Shown: in pieces, positions 3,537 through 23,153 of the stretch
Layout of the letters: every line of letters begins with the position of its first letter
How positions within the stretch are numbered: the stretch's first letter is position 1
Source: an uncultured Candidatus Micrarchaeota archaeon
Lineage (GTDB): Archaea; Micrarchaeota; Micrarchaeia; Anstonellales; Bilamarchaeaceae
Direction: 5' to 3'
NCBI GenBank assembly: GCA_903835385.1
Contig: CAILMQ010000015.1
Location: 1,252 to 65,251 of the forward strand
Length of the DNA: 64,000 nt
The notes under the pieces: model-generated
Database searches by the model: none
What the model was told of the DNA's origin: nothing
The model's input: the letters and a program-made list of their open reading frames with translations, nothing else
Program-made: the position numbers and the translations under genes

Positions 3537-4892
3537 ATGAGGCTGACTTTTTACGGGGGCGCGGGCGAGGTGGGAAGGTCCTGCGTGCTCCTCGAGGACA
3601 ATAACAAGAACCTGATGATGGACGCCGGCATAAAGCTCGGCGAGAAGACGGAGTATCCGCTCATAGGCGACATGGAGCTGCGGCGCATCCATGACATAGC
3701 CATAACCCACGCGCACCTGGACCACTGCGGCTACCTTCCGCACGTGTATTCCAAGGACGCGAAGCCCAGGATATGGCTCACCAAGCCCACCCGCGACCTG
3801 ATGGGCATACTGCTTTCCGACTACCACAGGATACAGAATGACAAGATTTCGCGGAATTTCTCAGGCCGCGAGGAATCGCCGGATTCACCGCGCAAGGACA
3901 GGGGGACCCAGAGGCTTTTTGGCATAAAGGACGTGAACGCGGTGATGCAGGACGCCAGGATACTGGAGCCCGGCGAGGAGGCGAAGGGCTCGGACTTCAG
4001 GTTCACGCTGCACCAGACGGGCCACATCATGGGCAGCGCCATGATCAGGGTGCCGGATGCGGGTGGCATAATCTACAGCGGCGACATCTGCATGCGGAAA
4101 ACGCGGATACTGGACGGCTGCGAGCAGGGTCTCTCGGCGCGCACGCTCATAATGGAAAGCACGTACGGCAAGAAGGAGGATATCATACCCAGCTACAAGG
4201 AATCCGCCATGAAGCTGATAACTACGGTGAACAAGACACTCGACGCCGGGGGCCATGTGATAATACCGTCCTTCGCGGTCGGCAGGGGGCAGGAAATACT
4301 CATGATACTGGACGATTACATGCGCTCGGGCGCGCTCGCCCAGTCCAGGATATACATAGAAGGCATGATAGGCAAGGCCACGCGCATCTACAGGCACAAC
4401 GCCTACTATGCGAACGATGACATCAAGAGGCGCATACTGATGTCCGAGGACGACCCCTTCAAGTCCAGCGCGTTCCACACGCCGACCAGCAAGAACCGCG
4501 AGGACGTGCTGAGGGAGCCGTGCATAATCGTGACCACCTCGGGCATGCTGAGCGGGGGGCCGGTGCTGTTCTATCTGGAGAAGCTGGGCACGGACCCGAG
4601 GAACAAGCTCGTTTTCGTGGGCTTCCAGGCGCCGGGCACGCGTGGCGCGAAGATACTGGCCGGAGAGCGGAAGATACAGATAAAAGACAAGGAGATAGAA
4701 CTCAAACTCCAGGTGGAGCAGATAAAGATATCCGGCCACGCGGACTTCAACGAGCTGGTGCAGTTCGTGAAGGGCGTAAAGGGCCTGAAGCGCGTGTTCG
4801 TCATCCATGGCGAGGAAACCGACCTGCCGGAAGCGCTGGGGAACCAATACGAGGTCATAGTGCCGAAGCTGCTGGAGACGTACGGGGTATGA
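3537..4892 (+). CDS. metallo-beta-lactamase / beta-CASP ribonuclease (aCPSF2 or RNase J-like, no KH domains)
   Basis: 451 aa. HAHLDHCG motif 2, later SGDI, ESTYG, and a C-terminal ISGHAD...VFVIHGE beta-CASP/motif C region. Confidence 0.8.
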   Translation: MRLTFYGGAGEVGRSCVLLEDNNKNLMMDAGIKLGEKTEYPLIGDMELRRIHDIAITHAHLDHCGYLPHVYSKDAKPRIWLTKPTRDLMGILLSDYHRIQNDKISRNFSGREESPDSPRKDRGTQRLFGIKDVNAVMQDARILEPGEEAKGSDFRFTLHQTGHIMGSAMIRVPDAGGIIYSGDICMRKTRILDGCEQGLSARTLIMESTYGKKEDIIPSYKESAMKLITTVNKTLDAGGHVIIPSFAVGRGQEILMILDDYMRSGALAQSRIYIEGMIGKATRIYRHNAYYANDDIKRRILMSEDDPFKSSAFHTPTSKNREDVLREPCIIVTTSGMLSGGPVLFYLEKLGTDPRNKLVFVGFQAPGTRGAKILAGERKIQIKDKEIELKLQVEQIKISGHADFNELVQFVKGVKGLKRVFVIHGEETDLPEALGNQYEVIVPKLLETYGV

Positions 4893-5219: not shown

Positions 5220-8200
5220 CTAGGAGTACGCCAGGCACTGGTATGTTGAGGCTCCGATGTCAATGGAGCACGACTTATCCTTGCCCACGATTGCCACGAG
5301 CTGTGCCGGCACGGTGGTGAACACCTGCACCCTGGTGGTCTTGCTGCCCGGGGAAGTGCCGGTGCTGAGCTGCCATATCACACTGTCGGGATTGCACTGC
5401 TTTAGTTTGCCCGGCGGCCCGCACATCACGCGGTAATAGCCCCTGCCCCCCTCGTCGAATATGGTGCAGTAGTCCGAGCTGGGCCCTGGCCTGCACCCGG
5501 GGCAATCCGGAGGATTTGCCTGCGTGCCGACGTCTATCTGGGTGAAGTTGCACGGCGCAGGCCTCATGTCGAACGCGCACGCCCAGAGCGTCGTGCTTAT
5601 GTTGTCCGTGGTCGCGGTATACACCGTGTCCGGCCCCCTGTCCGGGTTTATGCTGCCAATCACCTGGAAGAGCGGGTCCGGGAAAGGGTCCCACAGCACT
5701 CCGCTGCACGCGACCGGGGTGCCGTTGATTGTACAGCTGGTGTTGAATGTCTGGTTGTCCCCCAAAGACAGGCTTGCGGCCGGGGGGTTTATGGCGAGCG
5801 TGTTGTTCGGCGGAACGACGGTCAGGTTGGACGCGCAGGACACGTTCCCTACCGTGGCGTTCAGCTTGCCCGTGGTGCCGATGTCCGATATGGGGACCAC
5901 GGACGCGCCCGTGGACCCGGTGTCGAATAGTATGCCCTCCATGCCCTGCAGCTCCCAGCTTGCGCTTACGCATGGCACGGTGTTGTTGGTGTTGTTGAAG
6001 CACACCAGGCCGAATGCCGCCACCTCGAGCCTGCCCACGCTGGCCTCTGGCGGCGTCACGTTGCAGCCCATCACTCCCGGCACAGGCTTGGCGCCTACGG
6101 TTATTGATGTGAAATTGCACGGCGTTGGCGCCATGCCGGACGCGCACGCCCAGAGTTCAGTGGCCGTGTTGTCCACGGTCGCGGTGTAGTTCGTCATCGG
6201 GCCCGTATCCGGGCTTATCTCCCCGTCAACTGCGGGAAAGTCCGTGGGATTCCACTGCACTCCGGCGCATGCGACACTGTTGCCGACATGCGTGCAGTTT
6301 GTGTTGAATATCTGGCCGCCCATGAACGGCAGGTCCACTGACGGCGGATTTACCGCGATTGTGTTGGTCGGCGGAACCACGGTCAGGTCGGACGAGCATG
6401 AGACCGGCCCTATGGCCGCGCTCAGCGTGCCAGTGGTGCCGATGCCGGATGTCGTGAATATTGATGCGCCTGTGGGCCCGGTGTCGAACAGCCTGGCGTC
6501 AATGCCCTGCAACTCCCAGTCCACGCTGCCGCACGGCAGGGGATTGCCTGAATCATCAAGGCACTCGAGGCTGAATGGTGTTATTTCGGAGTAGCCCACG
6601 CTGGCAGGCGACGGAGTTATGATGCAGCTCGACACGCCCTGCACGCTTACGGGCTGGCCGCTGTCCGAGTATGCGCAGGACGCCTTGAAATCGCCGGTCA
6701 CGTCCGCGCTCACGTCTCCGGTTCCGGGTGCCGGGAACGTCACGTCCGCGCTCGCGTAATCGTTGGCTCCCAGGGTGCCGAAGTCCGGCGGCGTGATTGC
6801 CCACGCGACGCTGGAACCCGTGCACGGGCCCAGGTCTCCCTTGAGATGGGCGCACTGGACGCTAAATGTCCTGGTTTCGCCGGGGTGCACCGGCATCGTG
6901 CCGTCGGTGATTGCGCACCTGTCGCCCGGGCCCACGTCAACCTGCACCGCGTCTATGTTGCAGGCCGATGCCTGCCTTGCTGCCACATTGCATGCAGGCT
7001 GGTCCGAACTGAAGGAGAATGCGAGCTTGGCGCTGTAGCTGCCTTCGGCCGTGCCCGCAGGAACCGCGACCTGAACGTACAGGGTCCTGCTGCCGCCAGG
7101 GTTGACGGCTCCGGACGGGCCGAAGCCGTTGGACGGCACCGAGGTGCACGACGGCGGGTTCTGGCAGCACTCGGGGTTCGTGGACGGCCTGTCGCCCCCG
7201 CTCTGTGCGCACAGCATGTTGTTGAACGCGGCTGCGGCCAGTGCCGGATTGTCGCTGGTGACGCCGGTGACGTAATTGGCCACCTGGCCGGTGTCGCTTA
7301 TGGTGACGGGTATGACTGTGTAGCTGCCGGCCTGCATGGACAGCGGCTGCGCCCCGGAGAGCCCGCAGGAAAGCGCGTTCTGGCGGTTCTCCACCACTAT
7401 GTTATACACGTTCGTGCCCAGGGCGGCGTCGTATGGCGGTGCGCCTGCGCCTGCCTGGGCTGAAATCCTGGAGTAGACCTCCTCTCCCTGGTATTTGCCG
7501 CATACGGGGTGCCTCACGGTTGCCGCGCAGCCCTTGACCTCATAGGAATCCTTTATGGCATAGCTGCCCAGGTTGCTGAGCGGAACGGTGTTGTGGAATG
7601 ATAAGCCGCTGTCCGAAGGGGAAAGGCCGGGATAGGAGCCCGAGGGCGTTGTCGCCGAGGGCGTTCTCGTGCCCCAGCAGGTCACGGCAACTGTTCCCAG
7701 CCTGTTCGTGATTTGGGTGCCATAATTGTCATAGACGTCTATCTTTTTGTCATTGAGCGCGCCCTCGTGGCCCCAGCACGTCGGGTTGTTGTAATTGCAT
7801 ATGCTCACGGAGCTGATTGCATCGTAGTCTGCCTTGTTCCAGGACACCGGGAAATTGCCCCCTGTCGCAGAGGAAGCCCCCGGGGTGCATGTTTCCCAGA
7901 CCTCGGCAAATGCGTAGAAGTTCGGCGCGGACCATGAGCCGCTCATGGACGAATCCAGCGATGCGGTCGCGCCGGGGCACAGCACCGCGCCGTCGAGCGA
8001 GCCTCCTGAGCCGTACGAGAGCACCTTGGAGTCGTCAATGGAAAGCGTGGACGTGAAGGCGCCGCTGAAACCGGGCTTCAGGTTTATGAACGCATAGCCT
8101 GACGTGGTGTATATCTCGTAAAGGGGAGTGGACTGGTCGTTCCAGGAAAGCGTTTTCTGCTGGCTGGCTGGCCACGCCGCTCCGGCAAGGAGCAAAAAAA

Positions 8201-8237
8201 CGAAGATGGTTAGCGCTCTGGCATGCATTGGAATCAT
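5220..8237 (-). CDS. large secreted Cys-rich surface protein with Ig-like (Big-type) repeats and many N-glycosylation sequons
   Basis: 1005 aa. Signal peptide MIPMHARALTIFVFLLLAGAAWPASQ. Many paired Cys. Two tandem 187-aa repeats (aa 538-724 and 725-911). Dense NxS/T sequons. The start overlaps the upstream gene stop by 4 nt. Confidence 0.7.
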   Translation of the reverse strand: MIPMHARALTIFVFLLLAGAAWPASQQKTLSWNDQSTPLYEIYTTSGYAFINLKPGFSGAFTSTLSIDDSKVLSYGSGGSLDGAVLCPGATASLDSSMSGSWSAPNFYAFAEVWETCTPGASSATGGNFPVSWNKADYDAISSVSICNYNNPTCWGHEGALNDKKIDVYDNYGTQITNRLGTVAVTCWGTRTPSATTPSGSYPGLSPSDSGLSFHNTVPLSNLGSYAIKDSYEVKGCAATVRHPVCGKYQGEEVYSRISAQAGAGAPPYDAALGTNVYNIVVENRQNALSCGLSGAQPLSMQAGSYTVIPVTISDTGQVANYVTGVTSDNPALAAAAFNNMLCAQSGGDRPSTNPECCQNPPSCTSVPSNGFGPSGAVNPGGSRTLYVQVAVPAGTAEGSYSAKLAFSFSSDQPACNVAARQASACNIDAVQVDVGPGDRCAITDGTMPVHPGETRTFSVQCAHLKGDLGPCTGSSVAWAITPPDFGTLGANDYASADVTFPAPGTGDVSADVTGDFKASCAYSDSGQPVSVQGVSSCIITPSPASVGYSEITPFSLECLDDSGNPLPCGSVDWELQGIDARLFDTGPTGASIFTTSGIGTTGTLSAAIGPVSCSSDLTVVPPTNTIAVNPPSVDLPFMGGQIFNTNCTHVGNSVACAGVQWNPTDFPAVDGEISPDTGPMTNYTATVDNTATELWACASGMAPTPCNFTSITVGAKPVPGVMGCNVTPPEASVGRLEVAAFGLVCFNNTNNTVPCVSASWELQGMEGILFDTGSTGASVVPISDIGTTGKLNATVGNVSCASNLTVVPPNNTLAINPPAASLSLGDNQTFNTSCTINGTPVACSGVLWDPFPDPLFQVIGSINPDRGPDTVYTATTDNISTTLWACAFDMRPAPCNFTQIDVGTQANPPDCPGCRPGPSSDYCTIFDEGGRGYYRVMCGPPGKLKQCNPDSVIWQLSTGTSPGSKTTRVQVFTTVPAQLVAIVGKDKSCSIDIGASTYQCLAYS
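5505..6626 (-). repeat. intragenic tandem duplication, 2 x 561 nt (187-aa module)
   Basis: Module 1 (6066-6626) begins CIITPSPASVGYSEITPFSLECLDDSGNPLPCGSVDWELQG. Module 2 (5505-6065) begins CNVTPPEASVGRLEVAAFGLVCFNNTNNTVPCVSASWELQG. They are colinear to ...LWACA..PCNFT..I.VG. Confidence 0.8.
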
Positions 8238-10228
8238 CTCTCCTTCTTGTATATTCCCCTGTGCACGAAGTCCGAGACGTCGACATTGAATATCACCAGG
8301 ACGTTCCCCGGGCCGGTGAACGGAATGCCGGATATGGTCGCCGCCTTGCGGTAGCGCACTTCGGTCCCCATTCTGATGCCGAATAGCTTGACATCAGCGC
8401 CCCCTCCTATCGTGGATTCGGTTTTGACTCCCAGCGGAGTCGGCTCCCCTCCGGAACTCTGCACGTAGTAGAACTTCATGGGGAATGACTCGCCCTTGGC
8501 AGTGCTCGGGGTTATCCCGACTCCGGCGCGCCAGACGAGGTCTGCCAGTGGCTGCGGATAATCAGGGCTGCCTTTCTTGAATTCGCCGCCTATGTCCGCC
8601 ACTATCATGACCGGCCCCAGGCCTTTCAGGCGGCCGATACCCAGGCCGCCGGCGCCTGTGAGCGAGAACGAATTGCTGGGGGTCAGGAAGGAGCCCCTGA
8701 GCGCGTAGTAGAGCGGAAGTTTCAGGTATCCCGCGGTCCTGCCGCTCGCATCCACAAAGGACGCCTCTATGAGCGCCTGCGTCTTGCCCATGTTCATGAG
8801 CCGCGCCTGCCCGGTCGAGTCCCCGCTTTCCACCACGTCGTACTGCGACAGTGCGCCGATGTCGAGCTGAAGCGTCGCGTAGTCCCACGGATGATATTTG
8901 CCTGTGGCTCCGAGGCGGGCCGCCATCTGCTTGCCGGTGTAGCCGGTCGGCTTCATTATCAGGGTGTATATGGTATTTCCATTGGCGTCGGTGCCCGGTT
9001 TCAACTCGGGCTGGTACTGCTGCGACGTGACATGCGACACCCAGGCATGCGGCCCGAGCGTGAGCTTTGCGTTTTTGAAGCGGAACAGCTCCAGGTCCCC
9101 CCCCATGGTAAGCACGGAAATGGGTATGCTTGTTATCATCTGCGGGCATATTTTCCTGACGCCGTCCAGGATGGCGGATTTCAGAACCGACCCGTCGGGC
9201 ATCAGGTTCATGGCTTCGAGATAATTGCCCCTGCGGATTTGGTTCATGACGTCAACGACCTGCTGCCTGCCGCCCTGGCCGCTCGTATCAGTGGCGATGA
9301 GCTGTGTCACCAGGTTCCAGCGGGGATCGGTGGCATTGGTGGCATTGAGGTCGCCGCTTTGCCCAGTGGTCGTATTCAGCCAGTTCATGATGACAGCATA
9401 GTATGTGGTGCCTGCCGTGCTGTTCCTGTTTGGCGCGAAGTAACCGAGGAACATGTCCTTGCTGGCATTGCTCATTGTCGCCACGTCGTTAGGCCCGAAC
9501 ATCCTGGGAAGCACGATGGTCGGGGTTATGTCCGGAGCCTTGGGAGCCGTGCCCACCAGGCGGAATTCCCTCGGAAGGAGGTTTATCTCGGTACGCAGGG
9601 TCTTCGCACTTGCGCTTTTGGAGGATACTTCCTTTTCGACAGCCCCTTCGGCGTGGGCGCTGCTTATTTCGACTTCCACTTCATCCCCTTTGTCCGGAAC
9701 CGGGGTTTTCTCTGCAATCGGCTTCAGCTCGGGCTCGGGTTTTTCCGCAGCCTGCGGTTTCGGAATCACCAATGGCGTGCTGTTCACGAACGAGAGTTCG
9801 GTTGCGGTCAGCCTGCGGCTTATGTCTTTGGCGGCCTTGGTTTTTTTGAGTGCGTCCCCGAATTGGTCGTAGAGCTTCTGTATCTCGAGCAGGTAGAGGA
9901 GCGGCGCCTTGGCGAACGTCTTCAGCGTGCCCATCGCCTCCTGTATCTCCTTGATTTCCGAGACGTCCACCGTGACGTATCCTTTCGGAGCACTTAGCAG
10001 GTAAAGGTCCAGGTGCTGGCTCGGGCTGAGCTTGTCGTATATTCCCCGCTCCGTTGCATCGAATTGCCTCTTCTGCTTGAGCGTCAGGTTCGTTGTGGCG
10101 AGGCGCGCGAGCACCGCGTTTATGTCGCCGAGGTTTTTCACCGGGTCGGCGGAAAGCCTGGTCAGCTCTGCCAGGTCCTTGTTCACATTGCTTACACTAC
10201 CGGCCTTAGCGACGGTTGTTGATCCCAT
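8234..10228 (-). CDS. hypothetical 664-aa protein: helical N-terminus, acidic/Pro linker, beta-rich C-terminal half
   Basis: Long ORF with AGGTGA SD 6 nt upstream of the ATG. No signal peptide or TM seen. The C-terminus shows alternating hydrophobic beta-strand patterns (GADVKLFGIRMGTEVRYRKAATISGIPF...VLVIFNVDVSDF). No family recognised. Confidence 0.65.
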   Translation of the reverse strand: MGSTTVAKAGSVSNVNKDLAELTRLSADPVKNLGDINAVLARLATTNLTLKQKRQFDATERGIYDKLSPSQHLDLYLLSAPKGYVTVDVSEIKEIQEAMGTLKTFAKAPLLYLLEIQKLYDQFGDALKKTKAAKDISRRLTATELSFVNSTPLVIPKPQAAEKPEPELKPIAEKTPVPDKGDEVEVEISSAHAEGAVEKEVSSKSASAKTLRTEINLLPREFRLVGTAPKAPDITPTIVLPRMFGPNDVATMSNASKDMFLGYFAPNRNSTAGTTYYAVIMNWLNTTTGQSGDLNATNATDPRWNLVTQLIATDTSGQGGRQQVVDVMNQIRRGNYLEAMNLMPDGSVLKSAILDGVRKICPQMITSIPISVLTMGGDLELFRFKNAKLTLGPHAWVSHVTSQQYQPELKPGTDANGNTIYTLIMKPTGYTGKQMAARLGATGKYHPWDYATLQLDIGALSQYDVVESGDSTGQARLMNMGKTQALIEASFVDASGRTAGYLKLPLYYALRGSFLTPSNSFSLTGAGGLGIGRLKGLGPVMIVADIGGEFKKGSPDYPQPLADLVWRAGVGITPSTAKGESFPMKFYYVQSSGGEPTPLGVKTESTIGGGADVKLFGIRMGTEVRYRKAATISGIPFTGPGNVLVIFNVDVSDFVHRGIYKKER

Positions 10229-10394
10229 ATATAGTCACCTTTTAGAGAGTGAAAGCTACTGGAACGAGCGCGCTGACTAGCGGCGCCCTGGTATTGCCGA
10301 ATACCGTCGCTGGTGTCGAAAGGCTTGCAAACAACGCAGTTGCTGCCATCGCTTTCGCGGTTTTTTCTCTCCATCCCATTCATATCACCATGCA

Positions 10395-13300
10395 TCATTT
10401 CATTTTGAGTTTCCTGTGCTCGTACTCGTTCATGTACACGCCGGGCGGCCTGTCGTGCCCCCCGTTCGTAAGCTGCCTGGAGAAACTGTAGGAGGTCTGG
10501 TCCGGCCCGAGCTTTTTCGCCAGCTCGTCGCCGTCAAGGCGCACCCGGAACGCGTCCCGCAGCCATGGCACGCTGACTTCCGTGAAATGGAACTTGAATT
10601 CCGGCGCGTCTGTTTTCGGGTTCGGAACCACTTCGTAGACGTGCTCGAACACGAATCTCCTTATTCCTTTCTTTTCGAGTTCCGCGTCCGACGTCCTGGA
10701 AGCTGGGCCGTAGTCGTTCCATCCGGATTGCGCGTCAATGAATCCGACGAGCGCGCTCCTCTTATAGTCCCATTTCACATAGAAATACGCGGCCCTGCTG
10801 CTGTCGTCGCTGAGCCTCGCGATGGCCTTGACGCCGTGGGCCGTCTCGTTGTTGGACATCGCATAATAGCAGTGCACGGGGGACTTCATGTCTTCCTCGT
10901 ACGCCATGTAGGAGAACATCTTGCCTTTGAAAAGCGGCGCAAGCGGCGTCTTCGCGGACCATGACAGTACTGCGAACCTCTTGTCCTGGTTTTCGTAGTT
11001 GGGCCTGTCCATGGCGATTGAATACGCCACCTCGCTGGCCTCTGTTGGCTTCGGCACGGGCGGCACCACCGCCGGCTTCGCCGCCTTGTCCGCATCCTGA
11101 AGGTCCCGGACCGCAGTGGTGAGCAGCTGTATCGCCCTCACCGGGTTGGCCCACGCGCCGTCCACGGAACCGCTGCTAAGGTCTGCGGGCGTGTTGCGCC
11201 TGTAAACCGCGGCAAGGCCTCCCTTGCCGTCCTCTCCCATCACCAGCTTGTACTTGGCCCATGCGCGCTCGTGGAGAAGCCTGACCACGGGGTCGGTTTT
11301 CTCCGCCTCCACTATGCGCGCGGTGGCTCCGGACCCGTCCTGTTTCCTCTTCACCGTGTCCCATGCTGACGCGAGCTGGGACAGGACGTCGAGCAATGCT
11401 TCGTTGCCTGCTTCGACCGGCACGGCGTACTGCGCCTTGAGCGACGCCGGGGAAACCCTCAGCTGCCTCATGTCTATATTGGCGTATGCTTTTGCAACTG
11501 CGGCCTCGGCACGGACGACCGGCTTGAGATTGAGCTCCGGGAACGCGTATCCCTGCCTCTTGAGACCGGCCACGAACGGGGCCCAGACATCTTCGATGTA
11601 CGGCAGCATGCCCCTTGAAAGGTCGTCTATGGCTGCCGTGTCCGCATTCCTGCGGTAGCGCTGCTCTGTGCGCTTGAGCCCCTGCGGAACGGAATCGTCC
11701 ATGAGCTGGAGGGCCGCGGACCTGCCGGATTTGTCAGAAATCGAATCCAGCCAGGGGAAAAAGAGCGGCTTCCTTGCGCCCAGCGCTGCGACCAGTACGC
11801 TCTCCTTGTCGCGCAGGGACCCGTAAACGTCACTCACGTAGTCCTTCCTCTGCGCCGCAGAAATGTCTTGCCTGACGGTGCCGAGGAATACGATGTGTTC
11901 CCATCCAAGGAACGAGTTCTCCATGTTTATCATTGAGTGCGGATATACCGTCACAAGCGATTCCAGCGTGATGTCCGTCATGGTGGCGGAGTGGGCGTCC
12001 AGGTGGTCGGGATTGCCGAATGCGAGCCTGAACAGTTTCATCTCCGCCTCATAGGCGGCCTTCGCGTTCTGGAACTGGGGCGTGCCTTCCACGCCGGGCA
12101 CGAGCTTTGATGCCTTTTCGAGCGCGCTCTCTTTCTCCTGAAGGGCGAGCATGTGCGCGACACCGGCTTCCAGCGCCTCGCTGAGGCGGAACATCTCGTC
12201 CGGCGTGGTTCCCTTGGCCTGCGAAGCGCTCTTGCAGCGCTCTATGAGCTTGGCCACGGTGTCAAGAATCGGGCCCTTTTTCGCATTCCTCACCGCGTCC
12301 TCGGCATAGCCTATGAACTCGTCCAGGTCCTCCCTGGCAACCACCGGGGGGTCTTTTGTGAGGTTAGGGCTGGTGTTGGAGTGGTGTTCCCACCTGGCTT
12401 TGAGGAGGAACCGCGTCACCCTCGGGTCGATGACCTCGCCCGCCGCGGCGTTCTTCTCGAGTATGTGTTCGAGCGCCATCATGGCGTTCTTGCGCGCGTC
12501 TTCGGGTTTCTTTGTGGAGAGCAGGCTCGCCAGGTAGTAATTCAGCTCCTTCACTGCGGCAGCGTAGACTTTCTTGTCCCCGTGATTGCGCTTGTATTCC
12601 TCGGCCGCCGCCCTCGCCTCGGTGAGCGCCTGGAGCGCGCTCGCCCAGCTCTCGAGCCTTACCACGGCCATGCCTGGCACGGTCGTGCCTGGCGCACGGG
12701 CGTTGTTGGCCTCGTCCACGAGCTGCCGTATCGCCGTGACGCTGTCCCTCTTCAAATCGTATTTCTTGGCCTTGCTCGTTTTTTTGCCGTGAACGTTATC
12801 CTTATACCTGAGCGTGTATGAGCCTGTGAAATAAGACGCACTGATGCCGTCTATGACCTGTTCGCCTATGGCGCTGGCAAGGGCCCGCTGCTGTTCCGTA
12901 ATGCCCTCCTGGTAGGATGCGAACCTGGCGGACCGGTCGGCACTGGCCGCGGTTTCGGACTCTTCACTTCCGATTGTTTGGAGCCTCGGCACTGCCGATA
13001 GTTTTTTTCCGGTTTCCGCCCCGGCAGCTTCCCTTTTCGCTGCGGCCCTGGCGTCTTCAATTGACGCCGAAAGGACCCCGGCCCTGCGCCGTGCCGCTTC
13101 CACCTGCGCTTCCCTGTCATTGGCTGCGATTGCAGCTTTTGCCGGTGCTGAGGGCCTGGCAGCAGCTTCGTACTCTTTCTCCGATGCAGCGAGATCGCTC
13201 TCGAGCTTGGCAACCTGTGCTCTCGGTGAAGCGCCCAAAATCTCACCCTTAAGGACACGGTTGGCGGTCCCGAACACGCTCACGAAGCGCGCCGTGGGGC

Positions 13301-13526
13301 TGCCGCCCTTTGCGATACCGAGCTGTGCCAGGACGACGGTAAGTTCCACCACCTGCGGCATGTTCGGGGTTATCCCCTGGAGCCCTTTGGGAATGCTGGA
13401 ATCCATGGTAGAAAGAAGCGTTTTTATGCCGGCCCATTGTTCCTGCGCCATTTTTACGAGTGCGAGTTTTCCAGCCGCCTCTGCTTCCCCATCTGTTTTT
13501 GCCTGAGCAAATGCCTGTCTAGCCAC
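10395..13526 (-). CDS. hypothetical giant mostly alpha-helical protein (about 1044 aa; ORF open to 13721 = 1108 aa)
   Basis: Uninterrupted ORF 10395..13721. I favour the GTG at 13526, preceded by GAGGTG with a 6-nt spacer and a TATA-like ATTTATAAG at 13569-13577. Ala/Glu/Lys-rich helical body. Distinct beta-rich C-terminal ~230 aa after a Pro-rich linker. No family recognised. Confidence 0.65.
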   Translation of the reverse strand: MARQAFAQAKTDGEAEAAGKLALVKMAQEQWAGIKTLLSTMDSSIPKGLQGITPNMPQVVELTVVLAQLGIAKGGSPTARFVSVFGTANRVLKGEILGASPRAQVAKLESDLAASEKEYEAAARPSAPAKAAIAANDREAQVEAARRRAGVLSASIEDARAAAKREAAGAETGKKLSAVPRLQTIGSEESETAASADRSARFASYQEGITEQQRALASAIGEQVIDGISASYFTGSYTLRYKDNVHGKKTSKAKKYDLKRDSVTAIRQLVDEANNARAPGTTVPGMAVVRLESWASALQALTEARAAAEEYKRNHGDKKVYAAAVKELNYYLASLLSTKKPEDARKNAMMALEHILEKNAAAGEVIDPRVTRFLLKARWEHHSNTSPNLTKDPPVVAREDLDEFIGYAEDAVRNAKKGPILDTVAKLIERCKSASQAKGTTPDEMFRLSEALEAGVAHMLALQEKESALEKASKLVPGVEGTPQFQNAKAAYEAEMKLFRLAFGNPDHLDAHSATMTDITLESLVTVYPHSMINMENSFLGWEHIVFLGTVRQDISAAQRKDYVSDVYGSLRDKESVLVAALGARKPLFFPWLDSISDKSGRSAALQLMDDSVPQGLKRTEQRYRRNADTAAIDDLSRGMLPYIEDVWAPFVAGLKRQGYAFPELNLKPVVRAEAAVAKAYANIDMRQLRVSPASLKAQYAVPVEAGNEALLDVLSQLASAWDTVKRKQDGSGATARIVEAEKTDPVVRLLHERAWAKYKLVMGEDGKGGLAAVYRRNTPADLSSGSVDGAWANPVRAIQLLTTAVRDLQDADKAAKPAVVPPVPKPTEASEVAYSIAMDRPNYENQDKRFAVLSWSAKTPLAPLFKGKMFSYMAYEEDMKSPVHCYYAMSNNETAHGVKAIARLSDDSSRAAYFYVKWDYKRSALVGFIDAQSGWNDYGPASRTSDAELEKKGIRRFVFEHVYEVVPNPKTDAPEFKFHFTEVSVPWLRDAFRVRLDGDELAKKLGPDQTSYSFSRQLTNGGHDRPPGVYMNEYEHRKLKMK

Positions 13527-13568
13527 AGAGAACACCTCGTTTCTATTCTTTGTATTACCCCGACAACC

Positions 13569-13577
13569 CTTATAAAT
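13569..13577 (-). promoter_or_regulatory. candidate TATA box for the three-gene ORFan operon
   Basis: Minus strand ATTTATAAG, about 45 nt upstream of the proposed GTG start and about 25 nt upstream of the SD-containing leader. Confidence 0.35.
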
Positions 13578-13825
13578 CTGCTCAGGGAGGGGCAGGGTGC
13601 AGAAAAGCGCCACAGTGACAACCAACTGCCTAAACGTATGCCTGGGCCTGCCAGTCTTCCGGTACGGACTGCCCAAAGTAATGCTCCCTGCCTCTCCCAT
13701 TATTACACCACGATATTCCATTTATAACGAATATTTTAAAAAGGTGCTGCCGAATACACTAATGTAGAATAAGGATAACTTTAGGAATAAGTGTTTATAA
13801 ACGGATATCCCGCGGCGCCCTGCGC

Positions 13826-14129: not shown

Positions 14130-14314
14130 GCAGGGGTGGCGGAGTTTTATCCATTCGTGGATAGACCGTAACGGCCAAACGCGTCAGGTTCAGGTGGCTT
14201 TTTGCTCCTCGTTATCCGAGGGCAAAAACCCAGGAAAAAGGTCCTGAGTTCTTCTCGGGCCTTCCGAAGCCTGATGGCTTAGTGCCTTCAGGAGTTCAAA
14301 TCTCCTCCCCTGCA
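14130..14314 (+). tRNA. tRNA-Leu(CAG), interrupted by about 100 nt of intervening sequence (D-loop insert and long anticodon-loop intron)
   Basis: Acceptor GCAGGGG/CCCCTGC plus A73. T-arm AGGAG-TTCAAAT-CTCCT. D-arm GCG...GGCCAAA-CGC split by a ~27-nt insert containing hairpin TATCCA-TTCG-TGGATA. Anticodon stem TCAGG/CCTGA with loop TTCAGG. Long variable arm TGGCTTAGTGCCTTC. Followed by CTTTTT. Confidence 0.75.
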
Positions 14315-21560: not shown

Positions 21561-21944
21561 CTATGCCTGTGCCCTTACAGGTAACCGCACCTGCGGCAAG
21601 TTCCGCAACGCCTTACACGAGGGACGCTTGGGCGCGAGCGTGCTTGCGATGAGTTTCGACCTTCCATGCGGAAATTGGTCGTGTTTATAGGAGAGGCTCA
21701 GCAGCACGAAACCGACAGCCGTACGCGCTTCGGTCGAAAGCCGGCCACTGCGCAACATGCCGTCGAGCTTATTTGCTGTCTCAGGGCCGCCGTTTTCCTG
21801 CAGCCACTTCGCCGCTCCTGTCCTTTCGTTAAAATTGTTTGAAATAAGCCTGGCTAAGTTCCGCTGCTCCATTGATGCGCCATTTGTGTCGAGCGCAGAA
21901 GGTGGTTCAATCATTAGTCCGACGCAATCAGCCGACGTTGGCAT
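21561..21944 (-). CDS. small hypothetical protein, possibly one HEAT/PBS-lyase-like repeat
   Basis: Only the part downstream of the internal Met is plausible, because the upstream part of ORF 21561..22148 overlaps tRNA-Phe. ERTGAAKWLQENGGPETANKLDGMLRSGRLSTEARTAV resembles a HEAT repeat. Confidence 0.3.
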   Translation of the reverse strand: MPTSADCVGLMIEPPSALDTNGASMEQRNLARLISNNFNERTGAAKWLQENGGPETANKLDGMLRSGRLSTEARTAVGFVLLSLSYKHDQFPHGRSKLIASTLAPKRPSCKALRNLPQVRLPVRAQA

Positions 21945-22035
21945 GGGGTCACCTGCGTTACAATCGACGTGCAGATTTATAATTCTTGCGCTTTTTTCAC
22001 GATTTCCCACCCGGACCAAAAAGGAGGAAAAATAA

Positions 22036-22213
22036 TGCCGCAGGCCTGATTGACAGCTTTGCTGGCAAATTTTGGGCGCCAGCCCAAAGCTTTTGAACAA
22101 GCGACCCCACCGTTTCCGTGGGTCCCGACCGGGACACTTCAGCTTCACAGCTTCTCTTAGTTTTGAAATGCCTAAGAGAAACAGGTGTGCTCTCCCAGCT
22201 GAGCTACTGCGGC
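22036..22213 (-). tRNA. tRNA-Phe(GAA) with three intervening sequences (positions 30/31, 37/38 and T-loop ~59/60)
   Basis: Exons 22213-22184, 22143-22137, 22113-22092 and 22049-22036 assemble to GCCGCAG-TA-GCTC-AGCTGGGA-GAGC-A-CACCG-CTGAAGA-CGGTG-GGGTC-GCTTG-TTCAAAT-CAGGC-CTGCGGC-A. Intron 1 has exact 3-4-3 BHB geometry (bulge CCT, helix CACA/TGTG, bulge AAG, 11-bp inner helix). Confidence 0.85.
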
Positions 22214-22223
22214 ATAAGATTAG

Positions 22224-22895
22224 TCATGAACACGAAGTTTTTATAATAGATTCCATCTTGAGGCGCTTTCTTGGGTGTGAAGACCCGATGACGTTCAACC
22301 AATGCCGCACCATCTTATTTCCATGAATGGCAATCTTGAACGTATTTGTGTTGGATTTGCGAAATGTCGTCTTAAAACCTTCGGCGTCCAGAATTTTTCT
22401 GATGGACAAAAGCAGTTCCAAATTTTCATTTGTTATCTCTATCGTTGGGTAGTCATTTACTCCTTTTTTGTCACTGGTAAAAACCGAACCATCCGTATCG
22501 AAAATACCTCGAATGAAACGCAATCGTAAATTCCGAGATTCTACTACCTTGGATGGAATAACGCCGCAGCTTTTCTCACCACCGATGCCAAAACCAAGAT
22601 ACTTGGTCAAGAAAAGAAATAGCGCCTTTGAGTAAATTGACAATCTGAGACCCCGCCCTCTGACCCGGTAGTACACCGTTGGTTTAATGGCGCGCGTAGC
22701 ATAATCGGCGATAAAATCCATATACCCTTTGTCGTTCGGGTTGCCAGTTATCGTAATTTCATACTTGCGATTATTGGTCCAGAGGTTTCCGTCGCCCATC
22801 AAAACCCCGCAAAATTCTGCCATTTCATTATCTAAAATAAATCCGTTTCCAGAGCAAACCATAAGATTTTCAGTGCAAGGGCGGTTTATAAGCAA
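22224..22895 (-). CDS. LAGLIDADG-family homing endonuclease (double-motif, free-standing)
   Basis: 223 aa. Motif 1 FCGVLMGDGNL, motif 2 FIRGIFDTDGSV. The segment is visibly AT-rich (~40% GC) against ~60% flanks. Confidence 0.85.
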   Translation of the reverse strand: MLINRPCTENLMVCSGNGFILDNEMAEFCGVLMGDGNLWTNNRKYEITITGNPNDKGYMDFIADYATRAIKPTVYYRVRGRGLRLSIYSKALFLFLTKYLGFGIGGEKSCGVIPSKVVESRNLRLRFIRGIFDTDGSVFTSDKKGVNDYPTIEITNENLELLLSIRKILDAEGFKTTFRKSNTNTFKIAIHGNKMVRHWLNVIGSSHPRKRLKMESIIKTSCS

Positions 22896-22932: not shown

Positions 22933-23153
22933 GGTGAGGGGCATAGTCTGCCTTCTGTGTCCCGGAAACCGGGGCGGCATTATACTAAGCACCGGAAAAC
23001 CGGCTTGCTCCGTCATCAGGAGGGAAACGCTCGTTTCATCCCTTGCGGGTATCGTTTCTGTACCGCTTCCCAGGCCCTTAAAGCCTGTGCCCCCTCGCGG
23101 AGGGCAGAACTTCCTCACTTCCTTGCGGAAGCGTGAGCCGCCTGCCCCTCACC
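22933..23153 (-). ncRNA. rnpB: RNase P RNA candidate (compact, about 221 nt)
   Basis: Minus strand. P1 GGTGAGGGGCA/TGCCCCTCACC. P2 GGCGGC/GCCGCC. P3 hairpin TCACGCTTCC-GCAA-GGAAGTGA. CR-I-like GAGGAAGTTCTGCC pairs with the CR-V-like ACAGAAGGCAGACTA to form a P4 with a bulged U. Internal GNRA hairpins. No ORF. Confidence 0.65.

Follow-up and report, generated by a model that had tools for sequence, protein, structure and literature searches.

A tRNA-Phe(GAA) gene in a 64,000-nucleotide (nt) stretch of Micrarchaeota DNA, hereafter the window, is very probably a functional gene interrupted by three protein-spliced introns of the bulge-helix-bulge (BHB) type, at tRNA positions 30/31, 37/38 and 59/60. 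This reading of a DPANN gene is drawn from its sequence, its predicted folding and comparison with the corresponding genes of related archaea. Coordinates are positions in the window; the tRNA gene, the open reading frame (ORF) for a LAGLIDADG protein next to it and the RNase P RNA gene beyond that all lie on the minus strand. One window of the genome was examined, and statements about EndA, RtcB and copies of tRNA-Phe apply within it. The window was assigned to Micrarchaeota through its alignment to OY970229.1 (a 1.57-Mb Micrarchaeota chromosome, locus L053): next to the tRNA gene, 4 kb align at 83% nt identity in one direction and 0.7 kb at 79% in the other. It also carries archaeal genes for a thermosome subunit, an archaeal ThrRS editing domain, SRP54, PurP and a Cdc48-like ATPase. 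L-numbers such as L010, L048, L053 and L118 are labels for comparison loci in other genomes and metagenomes. The parts of the gene, in the direction of transcription, are as follows.

22036–22213, minus strand: tRNA-Phe(GAA) gene, 178-nt precursor body with no encoded CCA, identified by ARAGORN on the spliced 73-mer and by its match to L048
22184–22213, minus strand: exon 1, tRNA positions 1–30 (30 nt), 100% identical in L042, L048, L053 and L118
22144–22183, minus strand: intron 1, 40 nt, at 30/31, strict hBHBh' motif, from folding and covariation
22137–22143, minus strand: exon 2, positions 31–37 (7 nt), GCUGAAG, holding the anticodon GAA and G37, obtained by splice removal
22114–22136, minus strand: intron 2, 23 nt, at the canonical 37/38 site, relaxed motif, from folding and comparison
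22092–22113, minus strand: exon 3, positions 38–59 (22 nt), obtained by splice removal
22050–22091, minus strand: intron 3, 42 nt, in the T loop at 59/60, relaxed motif, from folding and comparison
22036–22049, minus strand: exon 4, positions 60–73 (14 nt), obtained by splice removal

Read on the minus strand from 22213 to 22036, the precursor runs GCCGCAG...CTGCGGCA. The initial annotation had described a 178-nt locus with perfect acceptor halves and no contiguous cloverleaf, from which three removals would give tRNA-Phe. ARAGORN indeed calls the 73 nt of joined exons tRNA-Phe(GAA), with a regular cloverleaf. The spliced product has the acceptor stem GCCGCAG/CTGCGGC followed by A73, the anticodon arm CACCG-CTGAAGA-CGGTG and the T arm GCTTG-TTCAAAT-CAGGC. 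Its sequence also contains U8, A14, G18G19, the G15-C48 pair, G37, T54-T55-C56 and A58 among the identity elements, together with A73. The unspliced locus, by contrast with the spliced one, was not called by ARAGORN, with or without introns allowed, nor by any Rfam model, whether at gathering thresholds or even at E <= 10. Because the introns are non-canonical, this silence is no evidence against the gene, and a locus invisible to both tools will therefore be absent from automatic annotation.

Related genes in other genomes agree with both the intron positions and the mature product that had been proposed. A tRNA-Phe gene in another Micrarchaeota genome (L048) is uninterrupted and is identical to the spliced product of the window at 71 of 73 positions, the two differences forming one compensatory T-stem pair (52:62, A-U into U-A). 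The syntenic gene of L053 has the same exons as the window save for this 52:62 swap, and its sole intron is a 16-nt insert at 37/38; in L042 the only intron is 47 nt long and also lies at 37/38. A second organism, recovered in several other metagenomes (L118–120 and L132–133), has three introns at the same positions and exons identical at 73 of 73 positions. Exons that stay identical beside introns that drift yet keep pairing therefore indicate a spliced gene and not a pseudogene. Readings of the locus as a pseudogene or as an assembly artefact were considered and rejected, the structure recurring in independent samples with conserved exons.

The wider distribution of intron states was surveyed with the first 25 nt of the gene, two positions being left free, in an exact-pattern scan restricted to one genome per species, which returned 117 loci. 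All loci closest to the window in their exons came from Candidatus Micrarchaeota, as did L053. The loci were sorted by intron state with a spliced-alignment script, and the 30/31 junctions were then derived explicitly, giving the following states among these tRNA-Phe genes.

No intron: many loci
37/38 intron only: many loci
30/31 intron only: Thermoprotei and Bathyarchaeota
30/31 and 37/38 introns: Micrarchaeota
37/38 intron and a T-loop intron: one Thorarchaeota locus

No three-intron state appeared among the loci retrieved with the 25-nt pattern, the sorting script not having recovered the third intron of the window itself. The T-loop intron of the Thorarchaeota tRNA-Phe (L075:4497-4628), which accompanies a 37/38 intron, lies at a site other than that of the window. 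A blastn-short search of the window and 228 loci found no paralogous copies of the three introns, only the orthologous copies of the L118 type. With no similar copies in the other tRNA genes of this set, there is therefore no sign of an 'intron transposition' pattern.

The structural evidence is strongest for intron 1. The initial annotation had described a 3-nt bulge CCT, a CACA/TGTG helix, a 3-nt bulge AAG and an 11-bp inner helix, and folding reproduced exactly this geometry: nucleotides C25 to A28 (CACA) pair with UGUG, flanked by the bulges CC|U and AA|G, the 11-bp inner helix and a 2-bp outer helix. The strict 3-4-3 fold is 1.5 kcal/mol less stable than the minimum-free-energy structure. 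A naive scan for strict BHB motifs gives about 1.3 matches per shuffled 178-mer at lenient thresholds; a motif scan alone therefore proves nothing, and the argument is carried by the comparative evidence. Junction segments were aligned from 24 tRNA-Phe genes of Micrarchaeota, Bathyarchaeota and Thermoprotei. In this alignment 99.5% of the cells of the 30/31 motif were paired, and six of the nine pairs showed two-sided changes (45 cells). None of 500 shuffles did as well, and sliding the 3' partner reduced pairing to 26–49%. In the L118-type genes about one third of the intron 1 positions differ from the window and the loop is rewritten, while the 11-bp inner helix still pairs, having undergone one double change from A-U to G-C together with several U-A/U-G changes. 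Judged from this alignment, intron 1 appears to belong to a widespread class of 30/31 introns.

While intron 1 is thus the textbook BHB that had been proposed at 30/31, the description of the introns as BHB-type holds for introns 2 and 3 only in the relaxed sense. The intron 2 motif consists of the anticodon stem, a bulge AA|A on the 3' side, a central helix of 3 bp plus an A-A mismatch, and a 5-bp inner hairpin (GUCCC/GGGAC). In the unspliced precursor its formation takes 4.9 kcal/mol, and once intron 1 has been removed 0.9 kcal/mol. In L118 one loop base of intron 2 is different; the 16-nt intron of L053, at the same 37/38 site, is unlike it. The motif of intron 1 uses nucleotides 25–28 and is incompatible with the D stem and the anticodon stem. 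Since these nucleotides are borrowed, the precursor must refold, and ordered splicing is likely: from the folding energies, intron 1 is probably removed before intron 2, and the T-arm intron appears structurally independent of both.

Intron 3 is the weakest part of the structure. The 5-bp T stem serves as its outer helix, and is followed on each strand by the 4+3 nt spacing noted in the initial annotation, a 6-bp inner helix (GCUUUG/CAAAGC) and a second stem. Cuts at 57/58, 58/59 and 59/60 would all give the same mature sequence, and the flanking helices fit 59/60 only. In the search of the window and 228 loci, a copy of intron 3 (39/42 identical) was found only in L118–120 and L132–133; the intron is not present in L053 nor in the other tRNA-Phe genes linked to a LAGLIDADG ORF (L121–L128). 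This distribution points to a recent gain of the T-loop intron in the sublineage of the window. A 59/60 intron with a relaxed motif is known from tRNA-Cys of ARMAN-2 (Ca. Micrarchaeum), where it is cleaved in vitro by the epsilon2 EndA (PMC3239211, PMC3488258).

Several points weigh against a gene that matures through all three splicing events. In intron 3 only two of the four central-helix positions (C56-G and A57-U) are Watson-Crick pairs, the strict geometry costs 4.6 kcal/mol, the minimum-free-energy fold has a symmetric 6x6 internal loop, and the conservation of the intron extends over only two distinct organisms. Among the 48 window ORFs scanned there was no Pfam match for tRNA_int_endo/EndA or RtcB. 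The imperfect central helix and its folding cost, together with the restriction of the insert to one sublineage, would suit a gene in which only introns 1 and 2 are genuine and the T-loop insert is retained in an aberrant or non-functional tRNA. We consider such retention improbable: the 4+3 spacing between the 5-bp T stem and the 6-bp inner helix is exact on both strands, the 59/60 position is that of the ARMAN-2 tRNA-Cys and tRNA-Pro introns, of which the tRNA-Cys one is cleaved in vitro (PMC3239211, PMC3488258), and the flanking exons of L118 are identical despite three substitutions in the intron. Alternatively, the locus might be a decaying pseudogene whose inserts stay unspliced while another tRNA-Phe copy does the work, as could be argued from its rejection by automatic tools, from the imperfect motifs of introns 2 and 3, and from the fact that just one window of the genome is visible. 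Decay is nonetheless hard to reconcile with exons that are 100% conserved between two organisms with diverged introns and flanks, with intron 1 stem changes that keep pairing, and with an intact TATA box and T-run; moreover, nine further genomes carry a LAGLIDADG-adjacent tRNA-Phe with 30/31 and 37/38 introns. We therefore give the pseudogene very little credence and favour the functional three-intron gene.

Two sequence elements, one on either side of this gene, are candidates for its promoter and terminator.

22238–22246, minus strand: TATA-box-like TTATAAAAA, at -33 to -25 from tRNA position 1, putative promoter element
22016–22035, minus strand: T-rich trailer UUAUUUUUCCUCCUUUUU, read from the sequence as a likely archaeal terminator

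The TATA-like box TTATAAAAA falls within the last codons (S-I-I-K) of the LAGLIDADG ORF, and both the motif and its position are kept in L118, L121, L122, L125, L127 and L128. Transcription of the tRNA would start from this box and end at the T-run, and RNase P would trim the 5' leader. The archaeal splicing endonuclease would then cut six sites, an RtcB-type ligase would join the four exons, and CCA would be added post-transcriptionally. On the same strand, a 195-amino-acid (aa) frame (21561–22148) that an ORF caller would report runs across the tRNA gene in its 3' half. For this frame the conserved start codon, with a TATA-like element in front, is the ATG at 21944, and L053 is arranged alike; the overlap is therefore an annotation artefact, and no real coding sequence overlaps the tRNA gene.

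Archaeal tRNAs with up to three introns have been described mostly in Thermoproteales (PMC4033280), and tRNAs with multiple introns also in ARMAN-1 and ARMAN-2 (PMC4033280, PMC3488258). The ARMAN-2 epsilon2 EndA cleaves strict and relaxed motifs, including that of the 59/60 T-loop intron (PMC3239211, PMC3488258). A broad-specificity endonuclease in the host of the window would fit the lineage, by analogy with its phylum (PMC3239211). Dependence on such an enzyme is also what the window gene would share with the multiple-intron tRNAs of Thermoproteales (Sugahara et al. 2007/2008, as summarised in PMC4033280). In contrast to these, the host here is a DPANN micrarchaeote and not a crenarchaeote, the expected endonuclease is epsilon2 and not (alpha-beta)2, and the introns have no similar copies in the other tRNA genes compared. 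The nearest published parallels are two from ARMAN-2, the pre-tRNA-Cys(GCA) interrupted by an intron at 59/60 and the pre-tRNA-Pro(GGG) that carries introns at 53/54 and 59/60 (PMC3239211, PMC3488258), which come from the same phylum and share the T-loop position. The motif of the pre-tRNA-Cys is relaxed, like that of intron 3. The window gene differs in being of another isotype and in having three introns spread over three arms, and cleavage has been shown for the ARMAN-2 substrates only.

The gene immediately upstream of the tRNA encodes a LAGLIDADG protein, and its surroundings may bear on the origin of the introns.

22224–22862, minus strand: LAGLIDADG endonuclease gene, 212 aa plus stop codon, identified by Pfam LAGLIDADG_3
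22884–22892, minus strand: TATA-like CTTATAAAC, about 20 nt upstream of the LAGLIDADG start, read from the sequence; putative promoter element
22933–23153, minus strand: RNase P RNA, 221 nt (Rfam RNaseP_arch, 104.5 bits), upstream boundary of the inserted cassette

The stop codon of the LAGLIDADG gene lies 10 nt upstream of tRNA position 1 on the same strand. Its start codon was placed by comparison with the homologue P0002, and the ORF of L118 has a similar TATA-like element upstream. Across 22 homologues of 29–85% identity there is no variation in the two motifs, G23-D24-G25 and R118-G119...D122-T123-D124-G125, or in the catalytic Asp residues D24 and D124. A predicted model with a predicted local distance difference test score (pLDDT) of 91.7 and a predicted template modelling score (pTM) of 0.90 shows a pseudo-dimeric alpha-beta-beta-alpha-beta-beta-alpha fold. 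The best Foldseek matches of this model are I-DmoI, PI-PfuI and I-Tsp061I (E ~1e-10). A sequence search against the PDB gave a single marginal match (PI-PfuI, E = 0.08).

The LAGLIDADG gene is polymorphic between close relatives. L053, 83% identical to the window, has no LAGLIDADG ORF and carries instead an 83-nt spacer between the RNase P RNA and tRNA-Phe. In the window the ORF and its TATA-like element replace this spacer, introns 1 and 3 are extra and intron 2 is different, while the flanks on either side of the ORF/tRNA unit are near-identical to L053. It would appear that a cassette of about 0.9 kb, made up of the LAGLIDADG gene and the intron-laden tRNA-Phe, replaced the spacer and one-intron tRNA-Phe of the close relative. 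The RNase P RNA at the boundary departs from the Rfam model in its specificity domain, where stretches of 45 and 36 model positions are cut to 2 and 5 nt. The L053 region that aligns to it, at 79% nt identity, also lies directly upstream of tRNA-Phe. From these sequences the RNase P RNA looks minimised in this Micrarchaeota lineage.

About 37 close homologues of the LAGLIDADG protein were found, all intact, of similar length and in the same PurP/UPP-synthase neighbourhood. In all contexts examined (L010, L118, L121, L122, L123 and L125–L128) a tRNA-Phe interrupted at 30/31 and 37/38 lies directly against the ORF, usually head-to-tail and twice (L123 and L126) in convergent orientation. Two loci of the same metagenome-assembled genome (MAG), L010 and L011 of CAIXOA01, carry near-identical two-intron tRNA-Phe genes in opposite orientations within the same flanking sequence, which suggests that the LAGLIDADG/tRNA unit occurs in both orientations within a population, as an inversion polymorphism.

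The linkage to tRNA genes extends beyond these close homologues. A metagenome scan yielded at least 500 relatives, and linkage was counted for the best 80 loci. According to ARAGORN, a tRNA lies no more than 100 nt downstream of the ORF end, or overlaps it, in at least 43 of the 80, and within 100 nt upstream of the ORF in 2. A stricter, intron-tolerant detector applied to the same 80 loci found a tRNA downstream in 37 and upstream in 2, with the ORF inside the tRNA gene in 3. Many isotypes are represented by the adjoining tRNAs, among them Phe, Arg(GCG), His, Trp and Tyr, and the isotype often goes with a particular subgroup. In the negative control of viral-contig relatives (24–29% identical), a tRNA was nearby in 0 of 17. 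As the viral relatives are distant and have no tRNA near them, the family is therefore not obviously virus-borne. In a Nanoarchaeota MAG, a distant relative of 30% identity (L130:2501-3640) overlaps the 5' end of a tRNA-His, and a second tRNA-His follows about 230 nt further on.

At least one relative lies inside a tRNA intron. At L147:1272-2126 the ORF is contained in a 760-nt BHB intron at 30/31 of a host gene read as tRNA-Thr(UGU). This intron shares the signature of intron 1 in the window, with an H helix CACC/GGUG, a 3' bulge AA|U and a 10-bp closing stem. At L180:1397-2189 and L181:431-1223, manual reading places the ORF in a 30/31 intron of about 720 nt in tRNA-Lys(CUU), with a slightly relaxed motif, whereas ARAGORN puts the intron at 38 and the automated 30/31 check did not recover the manual placement. 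The tRNAs of L147, L180 and L181 each have a second, small intron in the anticodon loop. In L118 the ORF stands between two copies of a perfect 40-nt direct repeat (2887–2926 and 3650–3689), each made up of exon 1 and the initial 10 nt of intron 1. The upstream copy of this repeat has a TATA-like box of its own, and from there the ORF would sit in a 30/31 intron of about 800 nt. Such a repeat would fit an ORF that once lay, or still lies, in an intron, or a one-sided repair event.

Taken with the predicted fold and the conserved active site, this context suggests that the LAGLIDADG protein may be an active homing endonuclease with a target in or beside tRNA genes. We tentatively propose, as a reading with somewhat less than even chances, that the three-intron state is a by-product of DNA-level homing by a tRNA-dedicated, I-DmoI-like LAGLIDADG family that is widespread in Micrarchaeota and other uncultivated archaea. 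The enzyme would be intron-encoded at 30/31 in some genomes and free-standing in others, the window among them, where an ORF-less 30/31 intron would have been left in the gene; intron 1, with its 40 nt, may be such a mobile 30/31 intron in its ORF-less form. Alleles of the tRNA gene that lack the intron or the cassette would be cut, and repair would copy the endonuclease gene together with the interrupted tRNA gene in the manner of 'collaborative homing', so that the cassette would spread by double-strand-break repair. The introns might also shield the resident gene from cleavage. A serious rival, though one less likely than not, is that the protein has been domesticated and is inherited vertically, as a WhiA-like DNA-binding regulator or a helper in tRNA-Phe expression or splicing, in which case the linkage would be silent on the origin of the introns. 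Domestication would account for the integrity, like length and shared PurP/UPP-synthase neighbourhood of the roughly 37 close homologues, and for the tRNA promoter embedded in conserved C-terminal codons; WhiA is also among the fold matches, at rank 50. It sits less easily with the invariance of both catalytic Asp residues over homologues of 29–85% identity, with best fold matches that are active intron- or intein-encoded endonucleases, and with the absence of the gene from 83%-identical L053. The inversion of the LAGLIDADG-tRNA unit in L123, L126 and L010/L011, the location of a relative inside a 30/31 tRNA intron in L147 (and, by manual reading, in L180/L181) and the exon-1 repeat around the ORF in L118 also speak against domestication.

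Three known systems offer comparisons for the proposed homing. Among archaeal rRNA BHB introns that encode LAGLIDADG enzymes, I-DmoI and I-Tsp061I have the same monomeric two-motif fold as the protein in the window. As in those rRNA introns, relatives of the protein lie inside BHB introns closed by long stems (L147, and L180/L181 by manual reading). In the window, unlike the rRNA cases, the host is a tRNA, the 40-nt intron is itself ORF-less, and the ORF stands apart from it, 10 nt upstream of the gene. A gene for an endonuclease beside a tRNA gene is also found in phage T4, whose free-standing homing endonuclease SegB is encoded in a tRNA gene cluster (PMC2330249). Between them, SegB and the likewise free-standing F-CphI resemble the window in their presence/absence polymorphism between close relatives and in an ORF-less intron that interrupts the possible target; these are GIY-YIG or HNH enzymes of phages, as opposed to a LAGLIDADG protein in archaeal chromosomes, and the likeness is one of analogy only. 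F-CphI reportedly takes part in 'collaborative homing' with an ORF-less psbA intron of cyanophages. Full-text literature searches turned up no account that connects homing endonucleases with archaeal tRNA introns or with tRNA genes of DPANN archaea, nor any paper on such a route for the spread of tRNA introns.

Elsewhere in the window, a second heavily interrupted tRNA gene (14130–14314, plus strand) was likewise missed by ARAGORN and Rfam. With the acceptor stem GCAGGGG/CCCCTGC-A and the T arm AGGAG-TTCAAAT-CTCCT it is probably a tRNA-Leu(CAG), although its boundaries are not fixed. A candidate 27-nt D-loop intron follows G15 and is of the HBh' type (H helix GCGG/CCGU, 8-bp inner hairpin, no outer helix). 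There is also a candidate 47-nt anticodon-loop intron, and the variable region, over-long at 42 nt, may hide a third. Three successive large ORFs of 1005, 664 and 1108 aa (5220–13721, minus strand) had no Pfam match at E <= 1e-5.

With three introns the tRNA-Phe(GAA) gene is at the known maximum, in a phylum whose splicing enzymology is worked out; both three-intron tRNAs and 59/60 introns are already published. What it adds is a clean, comparatively documented three-intron tRNA outside Thermoproteales. Its relatives form a natural allele series with 0, 1, 2 and 3 introns, useful for benchmarking tRNA finders and for studying the order of splicing. The larger value lies in the neighbouring gene, as a handle on how archaeal tRNA genes gain non-canonical introns. 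Published proposals for this gain include a 'transposition' whose mechanism is unknown and a protective role against integrating elements. Here there are four handles: a catalytically intact LAGLIDADG gene 10 nt away, a close relative in which the enzyme and two of the introns are missing, an intron-encoded relative at 30/31, and at least 43 of 80 homologues abutting a tRNA. These make the homing hypothesis directly testable, and homing, if true, would provide a concrete mechanism for the spread of non-canonical introns among archaeal tRNA genes.

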